Assembly: GCA_964476125.1 (NCBI GenBank)
Contig: CAYZAE010000015.1
Span: 1 to 63,972, forward strand
Source of the DNA: an uncultured Verrucomicrobiota bacterium
GTDB taxonomy: Bacteria > Verrucomicrobiota > Verrucomicrobiia > Limisphaerales > CAIMTB01
Length of the DNA: 63,972 nucleotides
Direction of reading: 5' to 3'
Shown here: positions 15,215 to 57,822 of the stretch, piece by piece
How positions within the stretch are numbered: position 1 is the first letter of the stretch
How the letters are laid out: the number at the start of each line of letters is the position of its first letter
Notes under the pieces: generated by a model
What the model was told of the DNA's origin: nothing
Seen by the model: only the letters and a program-made list of their open reading frames with translations
The model's database searches: none
Translations under genes and position numbers: made by a program

Positions 15215-15249
15215 GGTGGAGACGGAATTCAAAGCCAGGGAACGCGCGA

Positions 15250-21172: not shown

Positions 21173-21224
21173 TTGTCACCAAGCTGCCATTCGAACGCCG
21201 CGCCCCAAAACCAGGATCAGTCAC

Positions 21225-25086: not shown

Positions 25087-25155
25087 CTGCCGTCCTGACT
25101 GTCCTTCAGTTCCGCGACGCTCCCCTCCACGAACGGGCGCTCCGGCCCCGGACCT

Positions 25156-33626: not shown

Positions 33627-36600
33627 TCACCGGCTCATCACCCGGAAGAACACCACCGAGCCGTCCGTTGGCACGGACACGCTGGTGTCCGACGTGGTCG
33701 ACAGATCCACCCACGCGCCTTCCGTGAGAGCCGTCCGGCTCTGCACCGTGTAGGGGGCGACGCCCCCGGTCCACGCGATGCGGAGGGCCGTCCCCTCCCG
33801 GATCACCGTGACCTGGATCGGGTCGATCGGGGCAGGCGTCGATTCACCGGCCGGGCCCGGATTGAAGCCGCCCTGTGCGCTGAGAATTCCCAGGGCCGAG
33901 ATGCCGCTCCAATCCGAGGCCCAGTTGCCCTCGGCAAAGGCGCCCTTGAAGGCGGCCGGCTGATAACCGGCCGACGCGGGCGCGACGCGGGTGGAGGTAA
34001 GCGCCGGGCTGCCGGCCGCGGGACGAGGGTCCAGCTTCCCATCCGCCTCACGACTGATCCCGCGCAGTTGGGGATTCACCGAGGTGCTGTTGTTGTTCGA
34101 CGCGGTGGTGAACACCTCGTTCGTGAACACGGGATTCGCGAAGCCCCACCAGAGGTTGTCCTGGATGAGGGGGGCCGAACCCGTCTGCGGTCCGCCGCCA
34201 TTAAGCGGCTGGCCGTTGAAGTCGGTGAAGATGCTGTTGTACCAGCCCGCCTTCACGTACCGGCGGAGGAGCATGGTGTGGTTGTTGGCCGTTCCACCCG
34301 CGGTCGCCCCGGCACCCACCAGCGTGGCGTTGTAGATTTCGTAGGTCGCGGCCGGCACACCATTCCCATCGTTCCGCTCGTTCGGTTCGCCGTTTTGCTC
34401 GGCACCGTTGTCGCGACGGTCGTTCGCCTGAATCGCGAACCAGAACTGGTTCCTGCCGCTCCAGCCCATGTCCGTGTCGAAGGCGTCGTCATCGTTGAAC
34501 GCCGAGACCAGATGGCTCGTGTCGACGGAACCCCCGAAGAACTCGAATCCATCGTCGGCGAACGACAGGGCCTCGACGAATTCGACGACCGTGCCGCGAC
34601 CGACACCGCCGAAGGAAGCGCCGTTGATCTCCTTGTCCGGACTGAGCCGCTGGCCACCGTGACGGATGGACACATAGCGGAGCACACCCGAGCTGTCGTT
34701 GTCGTCGGATCCCCCGAAGCGATGAACGTTCTGGCCGTTGATCACCAGGTCCTCGAGGCCTTCGTACAGCTCATACTTCGGGCTGGCCGCATCCCCGGCC
34801 GCGTTCACGGCCTTGTTGATCCGGGCATTGCCCAGGATCACCAACCCACCCCAAAGCCCGCGATCCGTGACACGCAGGTCCTCGGCATCCGTCAGGTCAT
34901 CCTCCTCGGCCGTGAAGATGATCGGATTATGAGGCGTTCCCTCGGCGATGATCTTTCCACCCCGGCAAACGAACAGGGAACCGAAGTTGGGGGCCGTCCC
35001 GTTCCGTCCCTTGATCACCGTACCCGGCTCGATGCGCAGGGTCGCCCCGCCCAGCACGTACACGTAGTTGGTCAGGATGTAGACATTGGTCGAAGCCCAG
35101 GTGACATCACCCGTGATGGTCTGGTTCGAGACGATGACCTCGTGATCCGTCGGGGGCAGGAAACCGTCCTGGGCGAGGGAGGTCCAGCCGCGGAGCCAGT
35201 TGTCGTGGGCATCAAAGGCGCCGTAGTGGGAGGCTGCCCGCAGGAAGCCGTCGTTCATCACGGCCGCCGCATTGCTGGCCGCAGGACTGCCCGGCATCAG
35301 TCGGGGATCCAGCGCGCCTTTCGCTTCGCGGCTGATCCCGCGGATCATCGGATCCAGGTTGGTCACGTTCCTTCTCGAGGCGGTCGTGAACAGGATGTTG
35401 GTGAACACGGGATCGGTGAAACCCCACCAGAGATTGTTGGTGACCGAGGGGTTGGATCCGGTCTGCGGCCCGCCGCCATTGAGGGGTTGGCCGTTGAAAT
35501 CCGTGAAGATGCTGTTCGCCCAGACCGACTGGTTGTAGCGCCGGAAGAGAAGCGCGTGATTGTTCGCAGTCCCGCCTGCTCCCGCGCCGGCGCCAATCAG
35601 CGTCGCATTGTAAACCTTGTAGTTGGCCACCGGAACTCCGAGCCCATCGTTCCGTTCGTTGGGTTCGCCGTTTTGCTCGGACCCATTGTCACGCCGGTCG
35701 TTCGACTGGAGCGCGAACCAGAACTGGTTGGTTCCGTTGTACCCCTGGTCCATGTCGAAGGCATCGTCGTCGTTGAAGGCCGAGACGAGATACCGCGTGT
35801 TGACGCTGCCGCCAAAGAATTCGAAACCGTCATCCGCGAAGGACACGGCCTCGACATATTCAAGGGTCGTTCCACGGCCGACACCGCCCAGCGACAGCCC
35901 GTTGATTTCCTTGTCAGGACTCAGCCGCTGACCGCCGTGCCGGAGGGAGACGTACCGAAGCACGCCCGAGTTGTCGTTCGCGTTGTCACCGCCGTAGCGA
36001 TGCACGTTCTGTCCGGCGATCACCAGATCCTCCAGACCCTCGTACAATTCGTATTTGGGAGTCGCCGCATCCCCCGCCGCATTGACGGCCTTGTTGATCG
36101 GCGCTTGGCCAAGGATCACCAGCCCGCCCCACAGACCTCGGTCGGTCACCCGGAGGTCTTCAGGATCCGTCACGTCATCTTCCTCGGCGGTAAAGATGAT
36201 CGGACGCGCGGGTGTACCCTCTGCGAAAATCTTTCCGCCACGGCAGACGAAGAGGCAACCGAAGTTCGGAGCGGCACCATTCCGCCCCTTGATCACGGTC
36301 CCAGGCTCGATCCGCAGACTGGCGCCGGAGAGCACGTAGACGTAGTTCGTCAGGATGTACGTCTTGTCCGCGGTCCAAACGACGTTGGACGAAATCGGTC
36401 CCTGAACCGTCACCACCGAGGGATCGCCAGGCGGCACGAGAAATCCGCCCTGGGAGAGGAAGGACCATCCGCTCGCCCAGCCTGTCCGGGAATTGAAGGC
36501 TCCCTTGTAGTTTGCCGGCGTGTAGAACCCATCGGCAGGTGTCGCGCGGGAGGTGGACAGCGCGGGGCTTCCATCAGCGGGCCGGGGATCCAGCATTCCG

Positions 36601-39062
36601 TCGGCCGTGCGACTGATTCCACGCAGCAGCGGATTCACATTGGTCGAGTTGTTGTTCGAGACCTCGGTGAAGAGGCTGTTGGTGAACACGGGCTGCGCAA
36701 AGCCCCACCAGATGTTGTCCTTCAGGGTGGGCGTGGAACCCGTCTGCGGCCCGCCCCCGTTGAGCGGCTGTCCGTTGAAATCCGTGAAAATGCTGTTGTA
36801 CCAACCCGCCTGCACGTAACGGCGCAGCAACATGGTGTGGTTGTTCGCGGTTCCGCCTCCCGTGGCACCCGCCCCAATCAGCGTCGCGTTGTAAATCTCG
36901 TACGTCGATTTCGGCGTTCCATTGCCGTCGTTGCGCTCGTTCGGCTCCCCGTTCTGCTCAGAACCGTTGTCCCGGCGATCGTTCGACTGGATCGCGAACC
37001 AGAATTGGTTCTTTCCGCTCCATCCCATGTCCGTGTCGAAGGCGTCATCGTCGTTGAACGCAGACACCAGGTGCTTCGTATTGACGCTCCCACCGAAGAA
37101 CTCGTAGCCGTCGTCCGCGAACGACAGGGTCTCGACGTAATCGATGATCGTCCCTCGCCCCACACCCCCGAGGGTCAACCCGTTGATCTCCTTGTCCGGA
37201 CTCAACCTCTGGCCACCGTGCCGGAGGGAAACGTACCGAAGCACCCCGGAGTTATCGTCATCATCGTTTCCGCCGAACCGATGAACGTTCTGGCCATTGA
37301 TGACCAGGTCCTCAAGTCCCTCGAACACCTCGTACTTCGGGCTCGTCGCGTCACCCGCCGCGTTCACCGCCTTGTTGATCCGCGCATTGCCGAGAATCAC
37401 CAATCCACCCCAAAGCCCACGATCCGTCACCCCGAGATCAGTCGCATCCGCGAGGTCGTCGTCTTCGGCCGTAAAAATGATCGGCTTCTCCGCAGTTCCA
37501 TCAGCGACGATCTTCGCCCCTCGGCAAACAAACAGACACCCGAAGTTGGGGGCCGCCCCGTTCCGGCCCTTGATCACCGTTCCGGGCTCGATACGCAGGG
37601 TCGCACCAGCGAGCACATACACATAATTCGCCAAAATGTAGGTCTTGTCCGCGGTCCAGACCGTGTCGGACGAAATCGCTCCCCGAACCGTCACCACGGA
37701 CGGGTCGCCAACGGGAGCGAGAAATCCGCCTTGGGACAGAAAGGACCATCCGCTCGCCCAGTTGCCCTTGGCATCGAAAGCTCCCTTGTAGCTCGTCGGA
37801 GCATAGAAGCCGTTGGCGGGCGGAGTGCGCGAGGAACTCAACGCCGGACTCCCATCCGCGGGTCGGGGATCCAGAACGCTGTCGGCCGTGCGGCTGATCC
37901 CGCGAAGCATCGGATTGGCGTTCGTGAGGTTGTTGTTCGAAACCTCGGTGAAGAGGCTGTTGGTGAACACAGGCTGCGCAAAGCCCCACCAGATGTTGTC
38001 CTGCAGGGTGGGCGTGGAACCCGTCTGCGGCCCGCCCCCGTTGAGCGGCTGTCCGTTGAAATCCGTGAAAATGCTGTTGTACCAACCCGCCTGCACGTAA
38101 CGGCGCAGCAACATGGTGTGGTTGTTCGCGGTTCCGCCTCCCGTGGCACCCGCCCCAATCAGCGTCGCGTTGTAAATCTCGTACGTCGATTTCGGCGTTC
38201 CATTGCCGTCGTTGCGCTCGTTCGGCTCCCCGTTCTGCTCAGAACCGTTGTCCCGGCGATCGTTCGACTGGATCGCGAACCAGAATTGGTTCTTTCCGCT
38301 CCATCCCATGTCCGTGTCGAAGGCGTCATCGTCGTTGAACGCAGACACCAGGTGCTTCGTATTGACGCTCCCACCGAAGAACTCGTAGCCGTCGTCCGCG
38401 AACGACAGGGTCTCGACGTAATCGATGATCGTCCCTCGCCCCACACCCCCGAGGGTCAACCCGTTGATCTCCTTGTCCGGACTCAACCTCTGGCCACCGT
38501 GCCGGAGGGAAACGTACCGAAGCACCCCGGAGTTATCGTCATCATCGTTTCCGCCGAACCGATGAACGTTCTGGCCATTGATGACCAGGTCCTCAAGTCC
38601 CTCGAACACCTCGTACTTCGGGCTCGTCGCGTCACCCGCCGCGTTCACCGCCTTGTTGATCCGCGCATTCCCGAGGATCACCAACCCACCCCACAGCCCA
38701 CGATCCGTCACGCCGAGATCAGTCGGATCCGCGAGGTCGTCGTCTTCAGCCGTAAAAATGATCGGCTTCTCCGCAGTTCCCTCGGCCATGATCTTCGCGC
38801 CACGGCAGATGTAGAGGCACCCGAAATTCGGAGCGGCTCCGTTCCGACCCTTCACCACCGTGCCGGCATCGATCCGAAGCGTCGCTCCGGACAGAACATA
38901 GGTGTAGCCGGTGAGCACATAGGTGTTGTCGGCCGTCCAACGGATTTCCCCGGTCAGTGATCCGGAAACCTCATTGGTTGCGGCTTGGGTCGAGGGACCA
39001 GCGCCCACGAACAGGGCAGCCAGAAGGGCACCCACGAAGGGAATTCGAAGTCTTGATTTCAT
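33627..39062 (-). CDS. 1811-aa exported protein made of four tandem ~427-aa beta-helix-like modules plus a C-terminal FFR-type beta domain
   Basis: ATG 39062. Signal peptide MKSRLRIPFVGALLAALFVGAGPSTQA. Each module has Y[VT]YVL.GA[TS]LRI[ED][PA]GTV[IV]KG, DRGLWGGLVILG, FADDG[YF]EFFGGSV, FNDDDAFD[TM]D and NGEPNERNDG. The tail is LRIAWTGGVAPYTVQSRTALTEGAWVDL...VVFFRVMSR. Confidence 0.9.
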   Translation of the reverse strand: MKSRLRIPFVGALLAALFVGAGPSTQAATNEVSGSLTGEIRWTADNTYVLTGYTYVLSGATLRIDAGTVVKGRNGAAPNFGCLYICRGAKIMAEGTAEKPIIFTAEDDDLADPTDLGVTDRGLWGGLVILGNARINKAVNAAGDATSPKYEVFEGLEDLVINGQNVHRFGGNDDDDNSGVLRYVSLRHGGQRLSPDKEINGLTLGGVGRGTIIDYVETLSFADDGYEFFGGSVNTKHLVSAFNDDDAFDTDMGWSGKNQFWFAIQSNDRRDNGSEQNGEPNERNDGNGTPKSTYEIYNATLIGAGATGGGTANNHTMLLRRYVQAGWYNSIFTDFNGQPLNGGGPQTGSTPTLQDNIWWGFAQPVFTNSLFTEVSNNNLTNANPMLRGISRTADSVLDPRPADGSPALSSSRTPPANGFYAPTSYKGAFDAKGNWASGWSFLSQGGFLAPVGDPSVVTVRGAISSDTVWTADKTYILANYVYVLAGATLRIEPGTVIKGRNGAAPNFGCLFVCRGAKIVADGTAEKPIIFTAEDDDLADATDLGVTDRGLWGGLVILGNARINKAVNAAGDATSPKYEVFEGLEDLVINGQNVHRFGGNDDDDNSGVLRYVSLRHGGQRLSPDKEINGLTLGGVGRGTIIDYVETLSFADDGYEFFGGSVNTKHLVSAFNDDDAFDTDMGWSGKNQFWFAIQSNDRRDNGSEQNGEPNERNDGNGTPKSTYEIYNATLIGAGATGGGTANNHTMLLRRYVQAGWYNSIFTDFNGQPLNGGGPQTGSTPTLKDNIWWGFAQPVFTNSLFTEVSNNNSTNVNPLLRGISRTADGMLDPRPADGSPALSTSRATPADGFYTPANYKGAFNSRTGWASGWSFLSQGGFLVPPGDPSVVTVQGPISSNVVWTADKTYILTNYVYVLSGASLRIEPGTVIKGRNGAAPNFGCLFVCRGGKIFAEGTPARPIIFTAEEDDVTDPEDLRVTDRGLWGGLVILGQAPINKAVNAAGDAATPKYELYEGLEDLVIAGQNVHRYGGDNANDNSGVLRYVSLRHGGQRLSPDKEINGLSLGGVGRGTTLEYVEAVSFADDGFEFFGGSVNTRYLVSAFNDDDAFDMDQGYNGTNQFWFALQSNDRRDNGSEQNGEPNERNDGLGVPVANYKVYNATLIGAGAGAGGTANNHALLFRRYNQSVWANSIFTDFNGQPLNGGGPQTGSNPSVTNNLWWGFTDPVFTNILFTTASRRNVTNLDPMIRGISREAKGALDPRLMPGSPAASNAAAVMNDGFLRAASHYGAFDAHDNWLRGWTSLAQDGFLPPTDHEVIVSNQTITGDVTWASTNVYILTNYVYVLGGATLRIEPGTVIKGRNGTAPNFGSLFVCRGGKIIAEGTPHNPIIFTAEEDDLTDAEDLRVTDRGLWGGLVILGNARINKAVNAAGDAASPKYELYEGLEDLVINGQNVHRFGGSDDNDSSGVLRYVSIRHGGQRLSPDKEINGASFGGVGRGTVVEFVEALSFADDGFEFFGGSVDTSHLVSAFNDDDAFDTDMGWSGRNQFWFAIQANDRRDNGAEQNGEPNERNDGNGVPAATYEIYNATLVGAGATAGGTANNHTMLLRRYVKAGWYNSIFTDFNGQPLNGGGPQTGSAPLIQDNLWWGFANPVFTNEVFTTASNNNSTSVNPQLRGISREADGKLDPRPAAGSPALTSTRVAPASAGYQPAAFKGAFAEGNWASDWSGISALGILSAQGGFNPGPAGESTPAPIDPIQVTVIREGTALRIAWTGGVAPYTVQSRTALTEGAWVDLSTTSDTSVSVPTDGSVVFFRVMSR
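36724..37388. repeat. 665-bp stretch identical to 38005-38669
   Basis: Compared nucleotide by nucleotide at an offset of 1281 nt. The first mismatches fall at 36721-36723 and 37389. Confidence 0.9.
38005..38669. repeat. 665-bp stretch identical to 36724-37388
   Basis: See the partner copy. Antisense track ORFs 36878..37165 and 38159..38446 translate identically. Confidence 0.9.
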
Positions 39063-39063
39063 A

Positions 39064-39096
39064 AGCTTCAGGACGGCAATCGCCGTGTCAGAAGCT
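39064..39096 (-). promoter_or_regulatory. stem-loop abutting the giant-gene start codon
   Basis: The minus strand reads GGAGCTTC-tgacacggcgattgccgtcc-tGAAGCTT-ATG. Outer stem is agcttc/gaagct and inner stem is acggc/gccgt. The only GGAG lies at the 5-prime foot of the hairpin. Confidence 0.4.
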
Positions 39097-39172
39097 CCAT
39101 CCTTAATACCGGCGGCAACTTCCCAACGTCGGAATTGTTACGCTCGCGTGACACTCCATTCCCATGCCCCGC

Positions 39173-42094
39173 TCAGTACTCAAAGCTGGCTTGCAGCCCG
39201 AAAGAGATGCCCCGGGTGTTCCAGGTGTAGCGCCTGTTCCCGGGCTGATCGCCATAGGTGCGCTCGTATTCGGCATCCAGCAGATTTCTGGCCGAGGCCC
39301 GGATCCGCCATCGCTTGGCAATTCGCTGCGTCACCAGGAAGTCCACGATCATTGGCGGATGTTCGTAAACATCGGGGCCACCCACGTCGACGAGGTAAAT
39401 CCGGGGAGCCGCCCAGTTGAAGGCCAGGGTGGCCGAGGTTCCCAGACGCTGGTTGTCCCAGGACACATCCGCGTTCGCGATCCATTCCGACTGATCGTAG
39501 AGCGGGCGCGGATCAAGCGACTTCGGGTCGTTGATCTTCTCCTGCGCGGTGAGAGGCACCTCGGAGAGGATGTAGGAGAAGTTGAACCCGGCGGAAAAAT
39601 CGGCCAGCAGGTCATCCACCACGTCCAGCTTGCTGCGGGCCTCGAATTCGGCGCCATACACCTTGGCTTCGGCACGGTTTTCGAAACCCACGATGCCGCC
39701 GCCAAAGGTGATGATCTGCTTTTCGATGGGGTTCTTGAGGTCTTTGTAGAAACCGCTCACCGACACGATCGCGCCGGGCCGGGGGAACCACTCCCACCGG
39801 GCATCGTAGTTTCGAATCGAGCTCATCTGCAGGTTCGGATTGCCCCGAACCACCTCATCGCCGAACGGATCATAGGCCTCGTAACCGGCGATTTCCCGGT
39901 AGGTCGGACGCGCCACCGTGTCGGAATAACTGAGCCGGACGTTCATGTTGGAGGCGACCTGGAACAGCAGGCCGGCGGAGGGCAGAAGGTCGAGCTGACG
40001 GATGGCCGTGTTTGTATCTCCGCGATTGGAGACCGATGCCAGGCTCAAGTCGGTGTTCTCCGGCCGCAGCCCACCCAGGATTTTCACCCAGTCGGTGACC
40101 GGCTGCTCGATCTTGAAATAGCCGGCCACAACCTGCTGGTTGCCGAGATAGGAGAAATCGCCGAACTGCTGGGTCTGAAACCGCCGAACGAACACGTAGT
40201 TCGTTGCGCCCCGGGTGGTTGTTTCCGTGGTGTAGTTCAGATTCTCGGGGGTGAAGTACGTGTTGGGATCTCCCGACGCCGTCCATGCATCGTCCGACTG
40301 GGAGATACCGGGTTCAAAGGCAAAGGCCTTTTGAAAAAAGGTTCGTTCCGAAATTCCCACCGAGGTCCCGGCGCCCAGCACCGTTTCGAGGCCGTCGAGG
40401 ATCCGCAGCTTGATGGTGTCATCAAAGCGGGCCTGGAGGTTCGATTCATCGAGCGCCCGGTAGTTGCGTGCAGGCACCGAGGGCTCAGGAAGAGCGTTGT
40501 TGTTGACCTCGTTCCCGGTGAAGTCGAGCTCCCTCGCGTAATTGAAGAAGCGCTGATCCGGTTCGTCCTGGGTCGTGCCGGCCAGGGAAACCAACCAGTC
40601 GACGTGCATCTCCGACCATTCCTCGAAGTCGTGGCGGCCGAGCATCTGGAAGTTCAGAAGATCGCGTTCGGTCCACTGGAGGGTGCTTCGGTCAATCACC
40701 CGGCCCGGGAGGTTCTCAGGCCGGATTCCGGTCTGCCGGCGGGCCAGATCCTCGCCCGCCCGGTTGTAGATGAAGTTGAAACCGAACTCGTGATCCTCCG
40801 ACAGCTGATAGCCGATCGCGATGACCGAGGACCAGTTCACTTCCGTCAGCGATCGGACGTCCTGGTATTGCTCGTACGGCTCGCTGTCGATGTCCGCGTT
40901 CCGGTACTTGGCCGTGTAGCCGTTATCATAGAAGGTGAACCTGCGGCCGTAGGTGACCGAGGCGAGATACCCGAGCCGTCCCTCCCCCAGGTTGCGGGTG
41001 TCCCCGACCGAGAGAGAACCGGAGTTCGCTGGGGGCGGAGCCGCTTCGGTGGGGGCGAACTGATAGCTCGAAAAGCTGTTCAGATAACCGCGCACCCGGT
41101 CGGCCTGCGCCCGGCGTGCCACCGCCTGCTCCGGGGTCTCCCGTGACACCCGGGTCGGCGTCGCCAAATCGCTGCCTGTCGCGGTGGCGATCGATTTCGG
41201 CAACGCGCGCGATCCGTCGTCGAATCCGGCCCAGTCGGTGGCGCCACCGCGGTAGGTGAGGTAGTTGGGGTTGCCCGTGGCCTGGGTGTTGTATTCCACG
41301 CCCAGGGATCCGTTGAGCAGGAACTTCTCCGGGAAGGACCGAGTCACGATGTTCGCCGCGCCCCCGGCGAATCCGCCGGGAAGATCCGGGGTGAAGGTCT
41401 TGCTGATCAGCATCCGTTCGATCATTCCCGCAGGGATCATGTCCAGCTGCGCCGCCCGCCGGTAAGGATCCGCCGTGGGAACCTCCGCGCCGTTGAGGAG
41501 CGTCAGGTTGTAGCGATCCCCAAGGCCGCGAATAACCGCGAACTTCCCCTCCACCACGGTCGTCCCCGTCACTTTCGTCATGATGTCGGCCGCATCCGAC
41601 ACCCCGAGCCGGCGGAACTGTTCCGAGCCGATGGCCTCCAGGATCGAACTGCCCTCCTGACGTTCCTGCATCACCGCGATGGCTTGTTCCTGAAAGACTT
41701 CCGCGGTGACTTCGTATTCCTCGAGATCGAAGAACTCCGGTCGCAACGTGCCATTCACCGTGGTGGTCTGGCCCGGGAGCACGCGCACCTCGGTGACCAC
41801 GGCCGTCGCATAGCCGGAGCGTGAGAAGCGGACCGCCTGATCCCCAGGCGGAACTCCCTCGATGCGGAACCGGCCGGTGGCGTCGCTGGTGGTGGCCAGG
41901 GTCGTGCCCCGCACCGTCACCGCAGCGCCACCCAGCGGCTTGCCATCCCAACCCTCCACCAGCAGCCCGGCCACGGACCCCGTCTCCTGGGCGCGCGCCC
42001 TCAGGGCAAGCAGGTGAAACAACAGGACCCAACCACCCACCAGACGACACAGGACCTGCGCGACCGATTGGATCCAGCCGGAGCGTGTTTCCAT
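39173..42094 (-). CDS. TonB-dependent receptor with an N-terminal carboxypeptidase-regulatory-like domain
   Basis: ATG 42094 (METRSGW). Motif GLLVEGWDGKPLGGAAVTVRG...TGRFRIEGVPPG. Plug motif VIRGLGDRYNLTLLNG. Long beta-barrel ending ISFGLQASFEY. Confidence 0.9.
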   Translation of the reverse strand: METRSGWIQSVAQVLCRLVGGWVLLFHLLALRARAQETGSVAGLLVEGWDGKPLGGAAVTVRGTTLATTSDATGRFRIEGVPPGDQAVRFSRSGYATAVVTEVRVLPGQTTTVNGTLRPEFFDLEEYEVTAEVFQEQAIAVMQERQEGSSILEAIGSEQFRRLGVSDAADIMTKVTGTTVVEGKFAVIRGLGDRYNLTLLNGAEVPTADPYRRAAQLDMIPAGMIERMLISKTFTPDLPGGFAGGAANIVTRSFPEKFLLNGSLGVEYNTQATGNPNYLTYRGGATDWAGFDDGSRALPKSIATATGSDLATPTRVSRETPEQAVARRAQADRVRGYLNSFSSYQFAPTEAAPPPANSGSLSVGDTRNLGEGRLGYLASVTYGRRFTFYDNGYTAKYRNADIDSEPYEQYQDVRSLTEVNWSSVIAIGYQLSEDHEFGFNFIYNRAGEDLARRQTGIRPENLPGRVIDRSTLQWTERDLLNFQMLGRHDFEEWSEMHVDWLVSLAGTTQDEPDQRFFNYARELDFTGNEVNNNALPEPSVPARNYRALDESNLQARFDDTIKLRILDGLETVLGAGTSVGISERTFFQKAFAFEPGISQSDDAWTASGDPNTYFTPENLNYTTETTTRGATNYVFVRRFQTQQFGDFSYLGNQQVVAGYFKIEQPVTDWVKILGGLRPENTDLSLASVSNRGDTNTAIRQLDLLPSAGLLFQVASNMNVRLSYSDTVARPTYREIAGYEAYDPFGDEVVRGNPNLQMSSIRNYDARWEWFPRPGAIVSVSGFYKDLKNPIEKQIITFGGGIVGFENRAEAKVYGAEFEARSKLDVVDDLLADFSAGFNFSYILSEVPLTAQEKINDPKSLDPRPLYDQSEWIANADVSWDNQRLGTSATLAFNWAAPRIYLVDVGGPDVYEHPPMIVDFLVTQRIAKRWRIRASARNLLDAEYERTYGDQPGNRRYTWNTRGISFGLQASFEY

Positions 42095-42134
42095 GAAATG
42101 CCGTTCCCACTGAGTTTCAGCCCACTCCAACTGT

Positions 42135-43595
42135 TCAAGACCGCGCCCGCGCCGCCACCTGCTCCACCCGTTCGAGGAAGCGGGCCACGTTCTCGCGTGG
42201 CTTCACCTTCTGCGCCCGCCGCAGCAGTTCCACCGCCTCGGTGTACTTCTGCTGCTGCACCTTCAGCTGGGCATGCTTGAGAAAGGCATCCGCAGAGAAC
42301 GCCTCAAGCTTCGCCGCGGCGTCGTACCGGAACTCCGCCTTCTCCCGCTCACCGTTCCGCGCATAGTGATCGCCCGCCAGCAACAGCGCCTCACCATCCA
42401 GCGGGTTGCGTTCAAGGATGGATTCAAGGGTCTTCACCCCGTTGTCCGCATCGCCGGTCGCCAGCGCCACGCGCGCCTCCAGCTTCAGAAGCTTCAACTC
42501 CCCTTCCCCGGCCGGAACACCCGCCGCCCGCACCTTGCCGAGCAGTTCCTTCGCCTGTGGATAGGCGCCGCGTCCGATCAGCACCTCGGCCGGCCGAAGA
42601 CCGCGCTCCGGATTCTTGCCGCCGTCCTTCGCCACCGCCGCGACGTACGATTCCAACGCCAGCTCCCGGTTGTCCTGACCCAGATAAAGATCCCCGAGCA
42701 AAGCCAGCTGCGGGGCCGTGATCAGATCCAGGCGCCGCAGCATCTCGAAATTCACGATCGCCTTCGCCGGCTGTTCGCGCTGGATGAAGACGTTCGCCTG
42801 CAACGCCCACAGCGCCTCCTTGCCCGGCTGCTGTTGAATGAGCTCCTCCAGCAGCGCGATCGCCGCATCAAACTGGCTCAACCCGATCTGCGCCTTCACC
42901 AGGCCCATCTTAAAATCGAGGTTGTCAGGCTCGAACACCGAAGCCTGGAGATAGGCGCCCTGCGCCGACACAAACCGCCCGGCACTCAGGTGCGCAAAGC
43001 CCAGCAAACCGAAGATCTTCCCATCCCCTCCCCCGAGAGCGACCGTCCGCGTCAGCGGCTTGATCGCCTGTTCGAATTTTCCGTCGCGAACCAGGGCAAG
43101 ACCGAGATTTCTTTGCGCCCGCCGGTAGTCTGGAAACTTGGCCAGCGCCTGATCGTACTGGACCACCGCGTTGGTGAAGTCCTCCAGCTGGAAGTAAACC
43201 GTTCCAAGGGTGAAATCGAATACCGCCGAGCCACCTGGTTTCGCCGCCGACTTCAACTCCGGCAGCGCCTTGCGGGGATCCTCGCGCAGCAAGGGCACGA
43301 TCTTGTCCCGGTAAAGTGCCTGCTCCTCCGCCGAGAGCCGGGGCTCGGCCTCCGAAAGAAATCCGTAGCTGCCCAGGAGCCGCCGGGTGAAGTCGGGGTC
43401 GTTCCAGATTCCGGCCAATTCGTGATCGGGCGCCACCGGCGCGAACTGGGTTGGGGCGGTCGCCGCGGCGGAAATCGAAACTCCTTCGGAGGCCGCCACA
43501 CCCCGGCGGGAACGGCCCGACGAAGACTCGGCTCCGTGGACCGGCAGGAACGCCAGACCAGCGAACAGGACGAGGGCAAATGGTTTGGATCGCAT
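42135..43595 (-). CDS. exported TPR-repeat protein, TtpD-like position in the TonB2-type cluster
   Basis: Signal peptide MRSKPFALVLFAGLAFLPVHG. Multiple 34-aa TPR units throughout. Confidence 0.8.
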   Translation of the reverse strand: MRSKPFALVLFAGLAFLPVHGAESSSGRSRRGVAASEGVSISAAATAPTQFAPVAPDHELAGIWNDPDFTRRLLGSYGFLSEAEPRLSAEEQALYRDKIVPLLREDPRKALPELKSAAKPGGSAVFDFTLGTVYFQLEDFTNAVVQYDQALAKFPDYRRAQRNLGLALVRDGKFEQAIKPLTRTVALGGGDGKIFGLLGFAHLSAGRFVSAQGAYLQASVFEPDNLDFKMGLVKAQIGLSQFDAAIALLEELIQQQPGKEALWALQANVFIQREQPAKAIVNFEMLRRLDLITAPQLALLGDLYLGQDNRELALESYVAAVAKDGGKNPERGLRPAEVLIGRGAYPQAKELLGKVRAAGVPAGEGELKLLKLEARVALATGDADNGVKTLESILERNPLDGEALLLAGDHYARNGEREKAEFRYDAAAKLEAFSADAFLKHAQLKVQQQKYTEAVELLRRAQKVKPRENVARFLERVEQVAARARS

Positions 43596-43629
43596 AGGGA
43601 AAAAGGTCGCAACCGAGGTTCTTGTCCCA

Positions 43630-44298
43630 TCAGGACTGGGTGACCCGGAACCGGATCGGCAGGCGCATGTGGGTCTTCACGGCATTGCCGTCCTTCATGC
43701 CAGGCTTGAACCGCCAGCGCCGCACAGCGTCGAGCGCGGGCTTCTCGAATTCGGTCCGCGAGGAGTCCTGGACCCGCGCCTCCTCCACTCGCCCGTCCTC
43801 GGTCAGGAGAAAAACGACAGTCACCGTTCCCTCGATCTTGGCCTTCCGCAGTTCCGCGGGATAAACGGGCGCCACCTGCGCCACGACCTCGGGTCGCCGT
43901 TCTAGCTCCGACACATCAAAGGTGTCCAACGCCGCCTCGACGCCCGCCGCGGCCGAGGCAAGTCCCGTCACGAACCCGGGAAGATACCCACCCGCACCCG
44001 CCGCGAGATCAAGATCGGCCATCACCGGCGCCATGGGAGCCACGTCTTCGCCCAGGGTGGGCGGTGCCGCCTCTTCCTGTTTCGACTCCGCATCCGGGGG
44101 CGGGGGCGGGGGCTCTTCCTCCTGGGGCGGCGGAAGGTCGATGGCACTGGTCTTTCGAAGCTCCAGCACTCGCGACGGTGTCGCGACATTGTGCAGGAAT
44201 GGAATCGTGCAGAAAATCGCCCCCGTCACCCCAACCGCGATCAACACGGAGAAGGCCCATCCGACGGATCCAGACGATGTTTGATAGACCTTTCGCAT
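43630..44298 (-). CDS. tonB: TonB family energy transducer
   Basis: N-terminal TM segment, Pro-rich linker PPPQEEEPPPPPPD, and C-terminal domain YPAELRKAKIEGTVTVVF...AVRRWRFKPG. Confidence 0.85.
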   Translation of the reverse strand: MRKVYQTSSGSVGWAFSVLIAVGVTGAIFCTIPFLHNVATPSRVLELRKTSAIDLPPPQEEEPPPPPPDAESKQEEAAPPTLGEDVAPMAPVMADLDLAAGAGGYLPGFVTGLASAAAGVEAALDTFDVSELERRPEVVAQVAPVYPAELRKAKIEGTVTVVFLLTEDGRVEEARVQDSSRTEFEKPALDAVRRWRFKPGMKDGNAVKTHMRLPIRFRVTQS

Positions 44299-44342
44299 GC
44301 GTTAAACGACGAGTGCCGGACCCCGATCCCTCGCCCGCTTTT

Positions 44343-44747
44343 CTAGCCCTTCTCCGTCGCCAGACTGACGTCTTTCGCCCCCCCGAGCTTGGCCTCATCG
44401 ATCACCCGGACCAGCAACCCCGTACGGGCTGCCTCATCGGCCTGGATCACGACCGGGAGCGGTTCCTTCGTGCACAGCCGCTTGACCGTCGGCCGAACGC
44501 CGCCCAATCCGATTTCCTTGCCCCCGTAAGCCACCTTCCCGTCGCTGGTCACGGCGAAGATGATGCTGGTCTTTTCCATCTGCCGCGCACTCGCCGCCTG
44601 CGGCTTGTCCACCGCCACCCCCGGCATCTCCAGGAAACTCGTGGTCGAAATGAAAAAGATGAGCAGGAACATGATCACGTCGATGAGCGGAATCAGGTTC
44701 AACTCGATGGGCTCCTCGGCTTCGGCGAGTGTTCTTCGAAATCTCAT
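44343..44747 (-). CDS. exbD: ExbD/TolR family protein
   Basis: Motif LNLIPLIDVIMFLLIFFI. The start ATG overlaps the ExbB stop (ATGA at 44744-44747). Confidence 0.9.
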   Translation of the reverse strand: MRFRRTLAEAEEPIELNLIPLIDVIMFLLIFFISTTSFLEMPGVAVDKPQAASARQMEKTSIIFAVTSDGKVAYGGKEIGLGGVRPTVKRLCTKEPLPVVIQADEAARTGLLVRVIDEAKLGGAKDVSLATEKG

Positions 44748-45481
44748 GGCGTGATTGGTTGAGCGGACCCCAGATTCTCGTTGCCTGTCCTCCGATGGCC
44801 CTCACTCCCAGCCCCCATGCCGCCGCCTCCCTCACCACCCGTGCGCTTGCCGGCAACCCGCACGGGCCCGACTCCTGCGGTCGCGGATTCAGAAAACTTT
44901 CCGCGGTGAAATCGGATCGCGATGCTCTCCAACCGAGCGAGGAACGCCATGAACTCAACGCGCCAGCGCTTCGCCACATAGGCTGCCATCCACCCCGGCA
45001 ACGCCACCATCAATCCCGACTGCGTCGCCACTAGCGCCTCGCTGATGCCCCGGGCCACAATTTCGGAGACCGAACTTCCACCGACCCCAATCGCCCGAAA
45101 AGTCAACAGCATGCCCAGCACGGTTCCCAACAAGCCAAAAAGAGGAGCAGCAACCACCATCACCCCGAGCATCGTCAAGTGTCGGTCCGCCTCAGGCACC
45201 TTCGCCGCCTCCACCTCCCGGAATCGGCCCTCCACGTCCCGAAGAGAATGCACCTCGTCCTGGGTGTAGCGAATCAGCTCCTGGATCCTCACCGGAGCCT
45301 TCCCCGGATCCGCCAGCCACGATCGAATCTGGGAATCGCTCGCATTGCGGAGTCCAGGGTAGTGCAGCGAAATCAGCAATCGCGCCGCGGTCGCGTACAT
45401 CGCGAGGGCCAGCGACGCCAGCGCCAGCATGACCCAGCCACCGGTCATCCAGGTGTGGACCATCGTTTCAAATGCGTTCAT
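44744..45481 (-). CDS. exbB: MotA/TolQ/ExbB proton-channel protein, short form
   Basis: Motifs LFGLLGTVLGMLLTF and ISEALVATQSGLMVALP. Confidence 0.85.
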   Translation of the reverse strand: MNAFETMVHTWMTGGWVMLALASLALAMYATAARLLISLHYPGLRNASDSQIRSWLADPGKAPVRIQELIRYTQDEVHSLRDVEGRFREVEAAKVPEADRHLTMLGVMVVAAPLFGLLGTVLGMLLTFRAIGVGGSSVSEIVARGISEALVATQSGLMVALPGWMAAYVAKRWRVEFMAFLARLESIAIRFHRGKFSESATAGVGPVRVAGKRTGGEGGGGMGAGSEGHRRTGNENLGSAQPITP

Positions 45482-45538
45482 GCGGTCGGAACCAAGCGGG
45501 GTTTTTAGAGGACAGCAGGGATGCGAATTCCACGGGAT

Positions 45539-46975
45539 CTAAACCGCATCACCCAACCCACCTTCCGGAACCCCTTCCGGAACCCCGTTGATGAAACCCA
45601 CCGCCGTCTGCTCCATGCTCCCGATGATCCCCTTCGCCATCCGGCCGAGAAACGCGTGAAGCAGGAGCGCGGGAATGGCCACCGTCATGCCCGTCGCCGT
45701 CGCGATAAGGGCCTCCGAAATGCCCGCCGCCAGCACCTTCGGATCGCCGCTGCCGAAACTGGAGATCAACTTGAAGGTCGCGATCATGCCCATGACCGTG
45801 CCCAGCAACCCCATCAGCGGCCCCGTCGTCGCCGTCAATGCCAGGAACGGCAACCCCCGCTCCAGCTTCGTCCGCGCCGCCAGCATGCGCTCATACAGGA
45901 TCTCCTCAATGTACTCCTTCTTCTCGTGGGCATGCTGCACGGCCGTGGCCAGCAGTTCACCCGCAGGCCCCGACACCCGCCGCGCACGAACCAACGCCTG
46001 GTCCTTCTGGCCCGCCTCGAGATGCTTCAACACCGCCTCCAGATCCGCCTCCTTCGCCACCCGGAACCGGGAAAGCTGGAACCATTTCAGGATCGCCACA
46101 ATCAACGCGCAGAAGCCGAGCCCAAGCAGCGGAATCATCGCCCACCCACCCTTCTCCAATTTCTCGTAAAGGCTCTCCTTCAACGCCGCCAGCTTGAAGG
46201 CGTTCCCCAGTGTCGGATCCAGGGCCATGTCCCCGGAACCCGTCGACACCAACTGCCGGCTCGGCTCCACCACGGCCGGTCCCACGTCCACCACGCTCGG
46301 ATCCGCCTTGTTCAACTCCTGCTGCAACGGTCCAGCCGCCTCACCGGAGGCCGCAGCGAAAATCGCCACCGGCCCGATGAGGGCGATCTTCCCCTGCTGC
46401 AACAATCCACGCCGGTCCAGCGCCCGGCCTTCAATCAGTTCCCCACCCAACGCCCCGTCGATGCGAGACAGGGAAAGCGACAAAACCGAGGCCCGCCGAT
46501 CAAAGCGGTCCTGGGCCGTGATGTCGGGCGCGGCCGCCTTCTCCAGTTCGGCAAACTGCGCCGCGTACCTCGGCTCCTCCGCGAACAACAAGCGCGAGCG
46601 GAACGCACGCGCGTACTCGCTGAGAAGTGAGTCGACGTATTTGACCTCCTCCAGCCGGCGCTTCGACTCCGCCTTCAACGCATTGAGTTCGACCAGCTGG
46701 TTCTCCTGGAACCGCTGGGCCTTCCCCAATTCGGCACGACGCTCCGCCAATTGTTGTTCCAATGCGGCCAGTTCCCGCGCCAGCGGCACGCGCTCCGCCT
46801 CCACGACCTTGCGCTGCTCGGACAATTCATTCAGCGCCGCCTTCAGGTCTTTGGCCGAGCCAGCTGCCAACGCCCCCAAGTCCTGGGCTACGCCCATGCC
46901 CGGATACAAAAGCAACGAAGCCAACCCAAGGAACAGCGATTTTGAGATCCCGGAAATCATCGGACAAAGGCTCAT
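45539..46975 (-). CDS. long MotA/TolQ/ExbB family protein with a ~250-aa periplasmic coiled-coil N-domain (TtpC-like)
   Basis: Motifs GLLGTVMGMIATF and ISEALIATATGMTVAIPALL. The start overlaps the upstream stop (ATGA at 46972-46975). Confidence 0.8.
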   Translation of the reverse strand: MSLCPMISGISKSLFLGLASLLLYPGMGVAQDLGALAAGSAKDLKAALNELSEQRKVVEAERVPLARELAALEQQLAERRAELGKAQRFQENQLVELNALKAESKRRLEEVKYVDSLLSEYARAFRSRLLFAEEPRYAAQFAELEKAAAPDITAQDRFDRRASVLSLSLSRIDGALGGELIEGRALDRRGLLQQGKIALIGPVAIFAAASGEAAGPLQQELNKADPSVVDVGPAVVEPSRQLVSTGSGDMALDPTLGNAFKLAALKESLYEKLEKGGWAMIPLLGLGFCALIVAILKWFQLSRFRVAKEADLEAVLKHLEAGQKDQALVRARRVSGPAGELLATAVQHAHEKKEYIEEILYERMLAARTKLERGLPFLALTATTGPLMGLLGTVMGMIATFKLISSFGSGDPKVLAAGISEALIATATGMTVAIPALLLHAFLGRMAKGIIGSMEQTAVGFINGVPEGVPEGGLGDAV

Positions 46976-47772
46976 CGGATTGTGACAGGTAGAGGGACAA
47001 AGGTGGCGGTGCGCTCACCTCGATAGATGCGAACCACCTCACGCACCGGCGCGGACAACGCGGCCTCCGCGGTCCACTCCCAACCTTGCGCCCCGGGCTG
47101 GCCCCGACCCGAAAACTCCCCGGTCTGATTGACGAAATAGCCGGCCCCAAGCCCGACATAAACGGTTTCCACCGCCATCTCGTCGCCCGCTGGGTTCTTC
47201 CGCTTCTCGGAGGCCAGAGTCACCGCGTTGTTGAACTTGTCCACCTCGTTGAGCACGGACACCACGGTCTGCAGGCGCTCCGTGACCCCCGTCTTCGTCG
47301 TCTTCGCATCCTCGGGCAAGCGGGCCAGGAGGGGTTTCAGGGTCTCTTGCAGCGGAGAAGGCAACCGCGGCACGAGAGCACGAATCTTCTGCTCCAAGCC
47401 CTCCAGGGTGGTCCTGGCGTGGTCCAGGGTGGAGTTCGATTCCTTCAGCTCCAGCTCCGCGGTGGCCCGCTCCCGATCCACCTGGGCGGAATTCGTGGTA
47501 ACCTTCCCGCGCTGCTCCGCGATGCCGGCAAGCTCACGCTCATACAGCGCCTTGGTCTGCAGCAGCAGGTCCTTCTCGGACTCCCAATCGGTCCTGGTGC
47601 GGGAGATGAGTTGGCGGGTCTGGACCCACTGCTCCACGCCCGACCGGGCCGTGGCCAGCGGGCTTTCCACCGCACCCCGCGCCGTCACCAGGACGAATAC
47701 CATCCCCACGAGCGACGCTCGAAGGAAGTGGCCAACCCCGAGAGGAGGCTGATTGTTTGGCTGCACTTGCAT
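46972..47772 (-). CDS. DUF3450-like coiled-coil protein (TtpB-like), first gene of the operon
   Basis: ATG 47772 is preceded by GAGGG at an 8-nt spacing; the track GTG is at 47781. Signal/anchor segment followed by coiled-coil. The tail is YVGLGAGYFVNQTGEF. Confidence 0.75.
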   Translation of the reverse strand: MQVQPNNQPPLGVGHFLRASLVGMVFVLVTARGAVESPLATARSGVEQWVQTRQLISRTRTDWESEKDLLLQTKALYERELAGIAEQRGKVTTNSAQVDRERATAELELKESNSTLDHARTTLEGLEQKIRALVPRLPSPLQETLKPLLARLPEDAKTTKTGVTERLQTVVSVLNEVDKFNNAVTLASEKRKNPAGDEMAVETVYVGLGAGYFVNQTGEFSGRGQPGAQGWEWTAEAALSAPVREVVRIYRGERTATFVPLPVTIR

Positions 47773-47807
47773 CGCTATCACCCTCTCAACCCATTAGTTC
47801 CACTGAA

Positions 47808-47836
47808 GGGTCGAAAGTGTTACAATTCCGTGACAA
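47808..47836 (-). promoter_or_regulatory. Pho-box-like triple direct repeat upstream of the TonB2-type operon
   Basis: The minus strand reads TTGTCAC ggaa TTGTAAC actt TCGACCC. After 11 nt comes TAATGG (a possible -10), then GAGGG and ATG 47772. Confidence 0.5.
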
Positions 47837-47963: not shown

Positions 47964-49163
47964 ATGCTCGAGTTCCACTCCGCCAGCACCCGCATGGTCA
48001 ACTCACGACGGGCTATCTCCGAATGCTTCGAAGCCGCCCTGGGGTCCCGCTCCACCGCCTGCGACCTGGTCATCCTCCACGCCTCCATCGGCCACAACTA
48101 CCAGGAACTTATCGATCAAGCCCGCCAACTCGCCCCCGACGCCCGAATCGTCGGCGCCTCCTGCTGCGGCATCGTCGGCAGCGAAGGGGTCAGCGAATCC
48201 ATGAAGGATGTCGCCATCATGACCGTCTCCGGCCGCGAACACCTCGCCGTCGCCCACGTCGACGGCATCTCAGGCGATAATTCCTTCGAGAAATGCGCCG
48301 ACCTCGCCCGCCAGCTCAAGGCGGCTCGGCCCGGGATCAACATGGTCTATTTCCTCGGCTCGGGCATCGACATCGCCAACGACCGTTGCATCGCCGGGTT
48401 CGAATCCGTGCTCGGCCCCGAGGTCACCGTCTTCGGCGCCACCTCCGCGGACAACATGCGGGGAGTCGCCAGCTATCAGATGGTCGACGACCGCGTGTAC
48501 GAGCACGGAGCCTACGCCGTCGGATTCGCCGATCCCTCCCTCGACATCGACACCCAGGCCAGCCACGGCTTCGTCGCCGTCGGCGAACCCCTCCTCGTCA
48601 CCCGCTCCGAAGGCCACCGCATTCTCGAACTCAACGGACGCCCCGCCTGGCGCGAATACACCAGCCGGCTCGGACTCCCCGAAACCGCCTCCTGCGGCGA
48701 TTCCATCCCCATCGGCGCCCTCGCTGAGAAACTCCCGGAACACCTCGCCCGCGAGTACGGCAACGACCACATCCTGCGCGTCGTCACCAAGCGCGACGCC
48801 GCCTCCGGGGTCATGTACTACGCCACCTGCTGCCCCGAGGGCACCCGCCTCTGGCTCACCACCCGGGATGAACCCCGCATCTTCGCCGACATGGAACGAA
48901 TGATGAGCCAGCTGGTCGCCCGATCCGGCGGCCGGAAACCTGTCGCCGTCTTTCACGCCGACTGCCTGGCCCGCGGCCGTTTCCTTTTCAACCGGGTGAT
49001 GAAGGACGAACTGGTCAGCCGCATGCAGTATCCCCTCTCCAACAACGGCGTCGTCCCCCCCTGGCTCGGCATGTATGGCTTCGGAGAGTTCGCCCGGCTC
49101 GGCGGCGCCAACACCTACCATAATTACACCACCGCCCTCTATGTGATCCATCGCAAGGCCTGA
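47964..49163 (+). CDS. FIST-domain sensory protein
   Basis: 399 aa with an ATG start. FIST_N/FIST_C-like pattern: LVILHASIGHNY, IVGASCCGIVG, VFGATSADN, FHADCLARG and GMYGFGEF. Confidence 0.75.
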   Translation: MLEFHSASTRMVNSRRAISECFEAALGSRSTACDLVILHASIGHNYQELIDQARQLAPDARIVGASCCGIVGSEGVSESMKDVAIMTVSGREHLAVAHVDGISGDNSFEKCADLARQLKAARPGINMVYFLGSGIDIANDRCIAGFESVLGPEVTVFGATSADNMRGVASYQMVDDRVYEHGAYAVGFADPSLDIDTQASHGFVAVGEPLLVTRSEGHRILELNGRPAWREYTSRLGLPETASCGDSIPIGALAEKLPEHLAREYGNDHILRVVTKRDAASGVMYYATCCPEGTRLWLTTRDEPRIFADMERMMSQLVARSGGRKPVAVFHADCLARGRFLFNRVMKDELVSRMQYPLSNNGVVPPWLGMYGFGEFARLGGANTYHNYTTALYVIHRKA

Positions 49164-49266
49164 ACCACACCCGGGATTCTCCACCCTCAAGGGACCCCCC
49201 CCGGCAAAACACACAGCCCACCCACCCCCTGTTCCTCCCCCTCGTCCTCCCACTCACCCCTGCGAC

Positions 49267-53661: not shown

Positions 53662-53690
53662 TCGTCATGAAATCGTAACAATGAAGACAC
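53662..53690 (+). promoter_or_regulatory. Pho-box-like triple direct repeat upstream of pstS
   Basis: TCGTCAT gaaa TCGTAAC aatg AAGACAC. After 8 nt comes TACAGG. The site lies 26 nt before GTG 53716. Confidence 0.5.
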
Positions 53691-53715
53691 TTGCACGCTA
53701 CAGGGGTCGGGAAAG

Positions 53716-54627: not shown

Positions 54628-54650
54628 CCGGTCCCCCCCAGCCGAAACCC

Positions 54651-55840
<1,190 letters not shown>

Positions 55841-55844
<4 letters not shown>

Positions 55845-56779: not shown

Positions 56780-56791
56780 CCGATCGGCACC

Positions 56792-57610: not shown

Positions 57611-57631
57611 GGCGTGCGAAGCACGCCGTGC

Positions 57632-57807: not shown

Positions 57808-57822
57808 CGATCTCCGATCCGC

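Follow-up and report, generated by a model that had tools for sequence, protein, structure and literature searches.

We analyzed a stretch of 63,972 nucleotides from an uncultured Verrucomicrobiota bacterium (contig CAYZAE010000015.1; the whole stretch is called the window in the following). On its minus strand, at 33627–47781, a gene cluster joins a six-gene energy module of the TonB2 type with a TonB-dependent receptor (TBDR) and a giant protein of 1811 amino acids (aa). Listing of the open reading frames (ORFs) located all eight co-directional genes exactly where an initial annotation had placed them, and Pfam searches and a check of the junctions bore out its gene contents and overlaps. 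Both 4-nt overlaps consist of ATGA, and the remaining junctions measure 57, 44, 34, 40 and 110 nt. Coordinates are collected in Table 1.

Energy module, receptor and giant protein

The first six genes encode a DUF3450 protein, a long ExbB, ExbB, ExbD, TonB and a tetratricopeptide repeat (TPR) protein. They form one co-directional block in the order of the Vibrio tonB2 operon, as initially described. In Vibrio vulnificus, this operon comprises ttpB2 (DUF3450, 255 aa), ttpC2, exbB2, exbD2, tonB2 and ttpD2 (TPR, 425 aa); siderophore uptake requires all six genes, and the operon has a Fur box (PMC6957404). Protein sizes are similar in both systems, with a DUF3450 protein of ~260 aa first and a TPR protein of ~425–490 aa last. 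In contrast, the Vibrio operon is controlled by Fur, works for siderophore receptors and is not joined to a single receptor gene, whereas the window cluster has a Pho-box-like site and carries receptor and partner directly downstream. No Fur box was found upstream of the cluster, where the best consensus match had 9/19 mismatches. The energy module had initially been called hard-wired to this one TBDR; this is not demonstrable at the sequence level, as other receptors could be energised by the TonB2 module as well.

The TBDR consists of a signal peptide, a CarboxypepD_reg domain, a TonB-box-like segment (DLEEYEVTA), plug and barrel. The nearest NCBIfam model was TIGR01782 with 203 bits, below its cut-off of 310. 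The SusC model TIGR04056 reached 22.7 bits at a cut-off of 368, i.e., the receptor is not SusC-type, and no SusD-like gene was found in the window with Pfam. A PDB sequence search with the TBDR gave no match.

The giant protein contains four modules of 426–428 aa each (aa 28–454, 455–881, 882–1307 and 1308–1735), followed by a tail of 76 aa. Pairwise identity among the modules is 71–89%, and at the DNA level the copies are spaced by 1278–1281 nt. Modules 1 and 2 have in common a run of 666 nt that is 100% identical (38004–38669 and 36723–37388), with flanking ends of 48–90% identity. This points to either a recent gene conversion between adjacent repeats or an effect of assembling the array.

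The β-helix predicted in the initial annotation was borne out by an AlphaFold model of module 4 and tail (pLDDT, the predicted local distance difference test, 90.7; predicted template modelling score 0.84), which folds as a right-handed β-helix followed by a small β-sandwich. The structure search that had been proposed as a check gave only weak matches in the PDB (Foldseek E ≥ 2e-3, template modelling (TM) score 0.3–0.45), namely to pectate lyases and lyases of polysaccharide lyase family 3 (PL3), the epimerase AlgE4 and phage tailspikes. The match to Pel9A (E ~3e-3, TM 0.37–0.45) concerned the general fold only and was not accompanied by a PDB sequence match; the 76-aa tail matched Fn3-like domains. 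Judged from the predicted model, the module has no close solved relative. Sequence and profile searches of the PDB with the module gave no match, and no catalytic motif of a known lyase or phosphatase was found in it with Pfam, PDB and sequence/profile searches. Nor did the giant protein match any model in the local versions of Pfam and NCBIfam, even at E ≤ 10; the PF28492 model discussed below is newer than the Pfam version scanned.

We aligned 13 modules from five phyla to assess conservation (numbering of module 4). Nine acidic residues were invariant across the five phyla, i.e., E127, E171, D196, D197, E200, D218, D219, D222 and D224. They make up the motifs ExNG, DDGxExFGG and DDxxDxD, which lie on successive β-strands of the AlphaFold model. 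All motifs listed in the initial annotation (YVYVL.GATLRIEPGTVIKG, FADDGYEFFGGSV, FNDDDAFDTD and NGEPNERNDG) are present in the translation. Of its three acidic clusters, proposed there as metal- or ligand-binding sites, two belong to the family core (DDGxExFGG and DDxxDxD), whereas NGEPNERNDG is lineage-specific and conserved within Verrucomicrobiota only. On the predicted model, the invariant acidic array suggests bound Ca2+ that would be able to bridge to phosphate groups.

Table 1. Features of the gene cluster and Pho-box-like sites in the window
Feature	Position	Strand	Basis and remarks
TtpB-like DUF3450 protein, 269 aa, first gene	46972–47781	-	PF11932, 103 bits; order as in Vibrio tonB2 operon
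TtpC-like long MotA/TolQ/ExbB, 478 aa	45539–46975	-	PF01618 at aa 337–455; ATGA overlap with upstream gene
ExbB, 245 aa	44744–45481	-	PF01618, 73.5 bits
ExbD, 134 aa	44343–44747	-	PF02472, 87.6 bits; ATGA overlap
TonB, 222 aa	43630–44298	-	TonB_C PF03544, 85.5 bits; TIGR01352 over its cut-off
TtpD-like TPR protein, 486 aa, last of TonB2-type module	42135–43595	-	multiple TPR families; place as Vibrio ttpD2
TBDR, 973 aa	39173–42094 (ATG; TTG at 42130 also possible)	-	Pfam, NCBIfam
Giant protein gene, 1811 aa	33627–39062	-	ORF listing
Signal peptide MKSRLRIPFVGALLAALFVGAGPSTQA|AT, Sec/signal peptidase I, no lipobox	38982–39062	-	read from sequence
Beta_helix_4/ElpS-like module 1	37701–38981	-	666-nt identical run in common with module 2
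Beta_helix_4/ElpS-like module 2	36420–37700	-	sequence searches, BLAST
Beta_helix_4/ElpS-like module 3	35142–36419	-	repeat spacing, alignment
Beta_helix_4/ElpS-like module 4	33858–35141	-	AlphaFold pLDDT 90.7; Foldseek
76-aa C-terminal β-sandwich and stop codon	33627–33857	-	AlphaFold; common to Verrucomicrobial orthologues
Pho-box-like repeat TGTCAC-GGAAT-TGTAAC (TGTCACGGAATTGTAAC), ~40 nt upstream of first gene	47819–47835	-	motif search
Pho-box-like repeat TGTCAC-GCGAG-CGTAAC, in 110-nt gap, 75 nt before giant-gene ATG	39137–39153	-	motif search
Pho-box-like repeat CGTCAT-GAAAT-CGTAAC, upstream of pstS-like gene	53663–53679	+	search built from first two sites
Fourth exact pattern match CGTCACCCAATTGTCAC, 5' end of minus-strand ABC permease gene (20126–21172)	21163–21179	+	pattern search

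Family membership, genomic linkage and export

A database search with a single module returned more than 4,600 homologues, all with a precomputed PF28492 (Beta_helix_4) assignment. The homologues listed were 38–80% identical to the query, most of them covering 90–100% of the module, and an exhaustive search of cluster representatives gave 7,087 clusters at E ≤ 1e-3. PF28492 is also assigned to lipoprotein-type members and to Sphingomonas proteins whose genes stand in ElpS-type synteny; with the Sphingomonas homologue as query, only Sphingomonas-related proteins were found, all of them PF28492. In blastp comparisons, the module matched receptor partners from Sphingomonas (E 1e-30), Parabacteroides (E 1e-52) and Pseudoalteromonas (E 1e-47 and 1e-49), all lipoproteins, and the TBDRs of these loci align over their full length with the window TBDR at 27% identity (pairwise BLAST, E 1e-66 to 1e-86). 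Judged by homology and synteny, the module of the giant protein belongs to PF28492, the family of ElpS, Fjoh_0546 and BT4056. We found no literature under the names 'Beta_helix_4' or 'PF28492'.

Caulobacter ElpS (CC0170/CCNA_00169) is a ~50-kDa lipoprotein (lipobox LAGC) made under phosphate starvation, which is surface-exposed and then released in a manner dependent on the type II secretion system (T2SS). Its gene adjoins the TBDR gene CC0171 and the T2SS, a synteny kept in Sphingomonas and Xanthomonas; homologues occur in Shewanella and Bacteroides, and overproduction of ElpS led to more secreted alkaline phosphatase activity (PMC2996285). PhoB is required for its induction (PMC5172544). The window system resembles ElpS/CC0171 in the adjacent TBDR partner and, by the readings given below, in PhoB-dependent phosphate-starvation control and extracellular location. 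Also, the Sphingomonas homologue of the window module is a PF28492 protein in lipoprotein-TBDR-T2SS synteny. In contrast to the single module of ElpS, the window protein has four; it also has a different C-terminal domain and lacks a lipobox, and no T2SS is encoded next to it.

In Flavobacterium johnsoniae, a TonB-dependent transporter (TBDT), Fjoh_0545, and Fjoh_0546, the 'hypothetical lipoprotein FII' with a pectin-lyase fold (IPR011050), are encoded within the phoBR operon. Both are among the transcripts and exoproteins most strongly induced by depletion of inorganic phosphate (Pi), and the authors note the homology to Caulobacter (PMC8115612). The same study gives a share of 18.7% of the Flavobacterium exoproteome for FI and describes tight repression of the Pi-responsive loci under N and Fe limitation (PMC8115612). 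This system, with FI and FIII, is like that of the window in that a pectin-lyase-fold protein, abundant in the exoproteome in the case of Flavobacterium, stands beside a TBDT with a CarboxypepD_reg-type N-terminus, and the phoB-phoR-TBDR-Beta_helix_4 layout recurs in loci L055 and L083. Fjoh_0546, FI and FIII differ in being one-module lipoproteins and in having no dedicated TonB2-type module.

A preprint on TBDT 'lids' gives 40% identity between Fjoh_0546 and BT4056, then without a Pfam family, and a distant relationship of BT4056 to ElpS; it reports BT4055/BT4056-type proximity in 621 genera (bioRxiv 10.1101/2023.03.17.533168). By this account BT4056 is of the same family, and the Parabacteroides pair of TBDR and lipoprotein matches the window proteins. 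A lid of one lipoprotein per barrel, however, fits poorly with a soluble four-module protein of ~190 kDa. The complete module genes in the fetched loci contained one module in 33 cases, two in 33 and three in 6; four-module proteins were found in locus L004 and as cluster representatives of 1822 and 1879 aa. Four modules are the top of a common range of one to four, and the frequent tandem arrangement of two to four modules without lipid anchor argues against a simple lid model.

The giant protein had initially been described as having no obvious relation to known TBDR partners. This is not supported, as its module is part of a family described as Pho-regulated, surface-exposed TBDT partners or lids. 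The window holds a four-module, non-lipidated Verrucomicrobial variant of the recognised ElpS/TBDR Pho-regulon pair, equipped with a TonB2-type motor.

The proposed comparison of linkage across genomes was made on 79 loci from species-representative genomes, with their ORFs searched with the window proteins. In 65/79 loci, the module gene has an orthologous TBDR gene on its own strand at a distance of up to 1.5 kb, with E values between 1e-110 and 0 for most. Among the 14 loci without an adjacent TBDR, 11 end at a contig end and three have room for a TBDR gene, none being present. Absence of linkage, as the loci L001–L003 could have been read, was rejected by this count; L001 is cut at a contig end, and L002 and L003 are orphans. 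The pair is found in at least six phyla, with members in Verrucomicrobiota, Bacteroidota, Ignavibacteria/Melioribacter, Rhodothermales, Calditrichia, KSB1 and Zixibacteria. A full TonB2-type set stands beside the pair in eight of the 79 loci, all Verrucomicrobial.

Proteobacterial members were added by tblastn of plasmid and chromid records. On the chromid of Pseudoalteromonas sp. Bsw20308 (L084, NZ_CP013139.1 623044–633984), we found an eight-gene layout like that of the window: DUF3450, long ExbB, ExbB, ExbD, TonB, a 446-aa protein, a 931-aa lipoprotein of two modules and a TBDR. ExbB, ExbD and TonB are ~28–35% identical to those of the window; the DUF3450 and TPR proteins gave no blastp match. 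A dedicated TonB2-type motor is coupled to the pair in two distant phyla, i.e., in Verrucomicrobiota and in Pseudoalteromonas. The Sphingomonas layout is lipoprotein, TBDR, gspN, gspD and gspE, and in Parabacteroides the TBDR is followed by the lipoprotein. As a separate observation, a multi-pass membrane protein of ~380 aa without Pfam match recurs in loci of the Lewinella group; it lies downstream of the TBDR in L038, L048 and L058 and occurs also in L077 (1720–2760). It may be an inner-membrane step of the pathway. By eye it looked PiT-like; lacking a Pfam match, this identity was dropped, and we make no claim for it.

The signal peptide of the giant protein is of the signal peptidase I type (...STQA|AT) and contains no Cys, i.e., it has no lipobox. 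Most family members have Sec-type signal peptides and a subset are lipoproteins; most Verrucomicrobial orthologues and those of T9SS (type IX secretion system) type have no lipobox. Orthologues from the Fibrobacterota-Chlorobiota-Bacteroidota (FCB) group match the T9SS type A sorting domain TIGR04183 with 42–56 bits (cut-off 23), whereas the C-terminus of the giant protein gave no match to this model. In its place, the Verrucomicrobial orthologues, including that of the window, carry a C-terminal β-sandwich of 76–85 aa, and a Zixibacteria member has dockerin-like repeats at its C-terminus. By analogy with these orthologues, the evidence points to an extracellular or surface location of the family. 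The C-terminus of a second window protein (1987–5259, plus strand; 1091 aa, no Pfam match) weakly matches the β-sandwich of the giant protein (E 7e-5). Proteins exported by the source organism may generally carry this domain as a C-terminal tag.

Pho-box-like sites and probable phosphate control

The Pho-box-like site noted initially in front of the cluster is real (47835–47819) and not alone. The two sites of the cluster lie 40–75 nt upstream of start codons and are direct repeats at 11-nt phasing, in agreement with a Pho box of two or more 7-nt repeats near the promoter. For YGTMAY-N5-YGTMAY, the window contains four matches at 0.2 expected, although this pattern had been widened after the third site, that of pstS, was seen; an unbiased search from the first two sites alone gave 2 extra matches at 1.2 expected. 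For the ORFs around the fourth site, at 21163–21179, no Pfam matches were obtained. The third site opens a segment ~6 kb upstream of the operon (53663–58506) with a pstS-like gene and genes for an ABC permease, an ATPase and phoU. Because it sits before the window's own pstS-like gene, the motif is tied to the Pho regulon.

The sites recur in related loci. Both positions carry the motif in L005 and L019, and in L009 and L021 it precedes the DUF3450 gene. A site upstream of the module gene was found in 13/24 Verrucomicrobial loci, compared with ~0.03 expected per 270-nt search interval, and in several of these loci the motif stands in tandem at 11-nt phasing. The interval between a divergent pstS-like gene and exbB-exbD-TBDR-module in L016 contains four sites. 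In the Pseudoalteromonas locus, TGTAAC-GGCTC-TGTCAT precedes the module gene, which is separated from the TonB2-type genes by a terminator-like hairpin.

In 21 loci, the pair is accompanied by genes for a response regulator and a histidine kinase, its commonest other neighbours. For 6/6 response regulators tested, the best NCBIfam match was PhoB; L055 scored 316.8 bits for PhoB (cut-off 270) and 672.9 bits for PhoR (cut-off 500). Moreover, pstS-like genes are present in five loci, and neighbours behind Pho-box-like sites include Porin_5, pstS, pstC, PhoU_div with PHO4, and a monogalactosyldiacylglycerol synthase. In one locus, phoB-phoR-TBDR-Beta_helix_4 occurs together with genes for a metallophosphoesterase, for a phytase-TBDR pair and for PHO4.

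Other readings of the sites were considered. A σ54 promoter (TGTCAC-N5-TTGTAA) was rejected as the GG of the –24 element is missing, and an extracytoplasmic function (ECF) type promoter was rejected for wrong spacing. A palindrome (TGTCAC/GTAACA) is possible; both the pstS site and the tandem arrays agree better with an 11-nt direct repeat. A scan for the σ70 consensus found no promoter.

Because the sites stand at conserved positions, Pho genes are neighbours and homologues are Pi-induced, the cluster is very likely under Pho control. The phosphate-starvation hypothesis of the initial annotation is supported by the same conserved sites, by the neighbours phoBR, pstS, PiT and phytase, and by the Pi-induced homologues. 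Its single operon, in contrast, is probably too simple a view, since the conserved Pho-box-like site in the 110-nt gap suggests that the giant gene has its own Pho-dependent promoter.

Proposed function, alternatives and further genes

Taken together, we read the cluster as an ElpS/TBDR-type system of the Pho regulon for acquisition at the outer membrane, and assign this reading a probability of about 0.7. Within it, we infer that PhoB controls the cluster in the source organism, that the giant protein is extracellular and binds metal, what its ligand is and that this ligand is handed over to the receptor. Most likely, PhoB would bind under phosphate limitation to the 11-nt-phased repeats upstream of the ttpB-like gene and, separately, of the giant gene. 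The six-gene products TtpB-TtpC-ExbB-ExbD-TonB-TtpD would then form a transducer of the proton-motive force that energises the adjacent TBDR. The 1811-aa protein would be exported by Sec and most likely reach the cell surface or beyond, by analogy with orthologues that are T9SS cargo or released lipoproteins. In each β-helix module, the invariant acidic residues of the motifs ExNG, DDGxExFGG and DDxxDxD are predicted to line a groove that probably carries Ca2+. This groove would bind, or possibly cleave, a phosphorus-containing ligand whose large size or scarcity puts it beyond the reach of porins. The ligand would be handed to the receptor and imported in a TonB-driven step.

Several points weigh against this acquisition system. 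The giant protein has neither a lipobox nor a T9SS domain and could therefore remain periplasmic. The degenerate Pho-box pattern was refined after three sites had been seen, and no phoB or phoR gene lies within the window. The link to the founding members runs via homologues in the same synteny (Sphingomonas, Parabacteroides) and not via a direct alignment with ElpS, BT4056 or Fjoh_0546. For Caulobacter, cc0171 was reported to be constitutive and the phosphate content to be unchanged (PMC2996285), and AlphaFold-Multimer gave few confident contacts between BT4055 and BT4056 (bioRxiv 10.1101/2023.03.17.533168). Orphan module copies without TBDR exist (L002, L003, L012, L014).

As a tentative and rather doubtful extension of the acquisition reading, ElpS-type proteins may be 'phosphophores', abundant proteins, secreted or at the surface, whose Ca2+-loaded acidic groove captures phosphate, polyphosphate, phytate or metal-phosphate and which dock on a dedicated TBDR. 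Similar to HasA/HasR and to SusCD/PusCD, an extracellular or surface protein would capture a scarce ligand and pass it to a TonB-dependent transporter, and PusCD complexes are likewise Pi-induced. The folds, however, are unrelated, the window TBDR is not SusC-type and a SusD-like gene is missing. If true, phosphorus would be scavenged by a TonB-energised, protein-mediated route across the outer membrane in at least six phyla in a hemophore-like manner, and the four-module Verrucomicrobial protein with its own TonB2 motor would be a high-avidity version.

The modules could instead be Ca2+-dependent extracellular phosphohydrolases, phosphodiesterases or lyases that act on a phosphorus-rich polymer (phytate complexes, polyphosphate, nucleic acid, teichoic-acid-like or phosphorylated glycans), with the TBDR importing the products. 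We consider such an enzyme unlikely. The fold matches only carbohydrate-active β-helix enzymes, i.e., Pel9A, PL3 lyases, AlgE4 and tailspike depolymerases, and the invariant acidic residues lie on successive rungs like pectate-lyase Ca2+ sites. Tandem duplication to two to four modules is common in the family, and with four catalytic modules in tandem the protein would be more active on a polymer, in the manner of the multi-module AlgE epimerases. The Foldseek matches are weak, however (E > 1e-3, TM 0.3–0.45), and are joined neither by a known lyase or phosphatase catalytic motif nor by a Pfam or PDB sequence match in the searches described. Moreover, the very large exoproteome share of homologues such as FI (18.7%) suits a stoichiometric binder better than a catalyst, and to be paired strictly one-to-one with a TBDR is a typical trait of capture partners.

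It is improbable that the giant protein is periplasmic and binds or processes TBDR cargo after import. The Sec/signal peptidase I signal as the only export signal, the C-terminus without TIGR04183 match and the absence of visible T2SS genes in the window are consistent with this location. Yet every orthologue with a recognisable sorting device points outward, be it by the T9SS domain of FCB members or as lipoproteins whose surface exposure is shown or argued for in Caulobacter, Flavobacterium and Bacteroides, and the conserved Verrucomicrobial β-sandwich stands exactly at the place of the T9SS tag. Very improbable in our view is a system without relation to phosphorus, i.e., a carbohydrate-uptake locus with a pectin-lyase-like protein and a TonB-Xanth-Caul-type receptor, or an iron system like that of Vibrio TonB2. 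TIGR01782 as the best, sub-threshold receptor model and the β-helix fold would suit the former, and the Fur-regulated Vibrio TonB2 systems for siderophore uptake the latter. Against both, the Fur search gave the poor best match described above, and no glycoside hydrolase or sugar-catabolic genes are conserved beside the pair, its conserved neighbours being phoBR, pstS, PiT, PhoU-like, phytase and porin genes. Homologues also respond to Pi depletion, and the Pi-responsive loci of Flavobacterium are those described as tightly repressed when N or Fe is limiting.

Growth in many waters and soils is constrained by the supply of phosphorus, and passage of its compounds across the outer membrane is far less understood than inner-membrane uptake by Pst. 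The ElpS/TBDR pair is among the most widespread Pho-regulon modules without known substrate (~7,000 clusters at 50% identity; 621 genera), and the window extends it into Verrucomicrobiota. The invariant acidic residues, the giant gene's own conserved Pho-box-like promoter site and the TonB2-type coupling provide concrete handles for finding the cargo.

Some further genes of the window were noted. On the plus strand, a 794-aa PA14-domain protein (22542–24926) precedes an 891-aa protein (25099–27774) with a β-propeller and a PF04185 phosphoesterase domain (phospholipase C/acid phosphatase). This gene pair may be another phosphorus-scavenging unit. At 22445–22462, there is a Pho-box-like match with two mismatches. 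Divergent from the operon, at 47964–51672 (plus strand), lie genes for a FIST-domain sensor and an 801-aa hybrid histidine kinase (HisKA, HATPase, receiver and Hpt domains), which could be a local regulator of the cluster. The region 9622–18306 contains genes typical of the Planctomycetota-Verrucomicrobiota-Chlamydiota (PVC) superphylum (Ser/Thr kinase with WD40 repeats, DUF1501, PSCyt1/DUF1549/DUF1553), in keeping with an origin from Verrucomicrobiota or another PVC member, and the GC content of the window is 65%.

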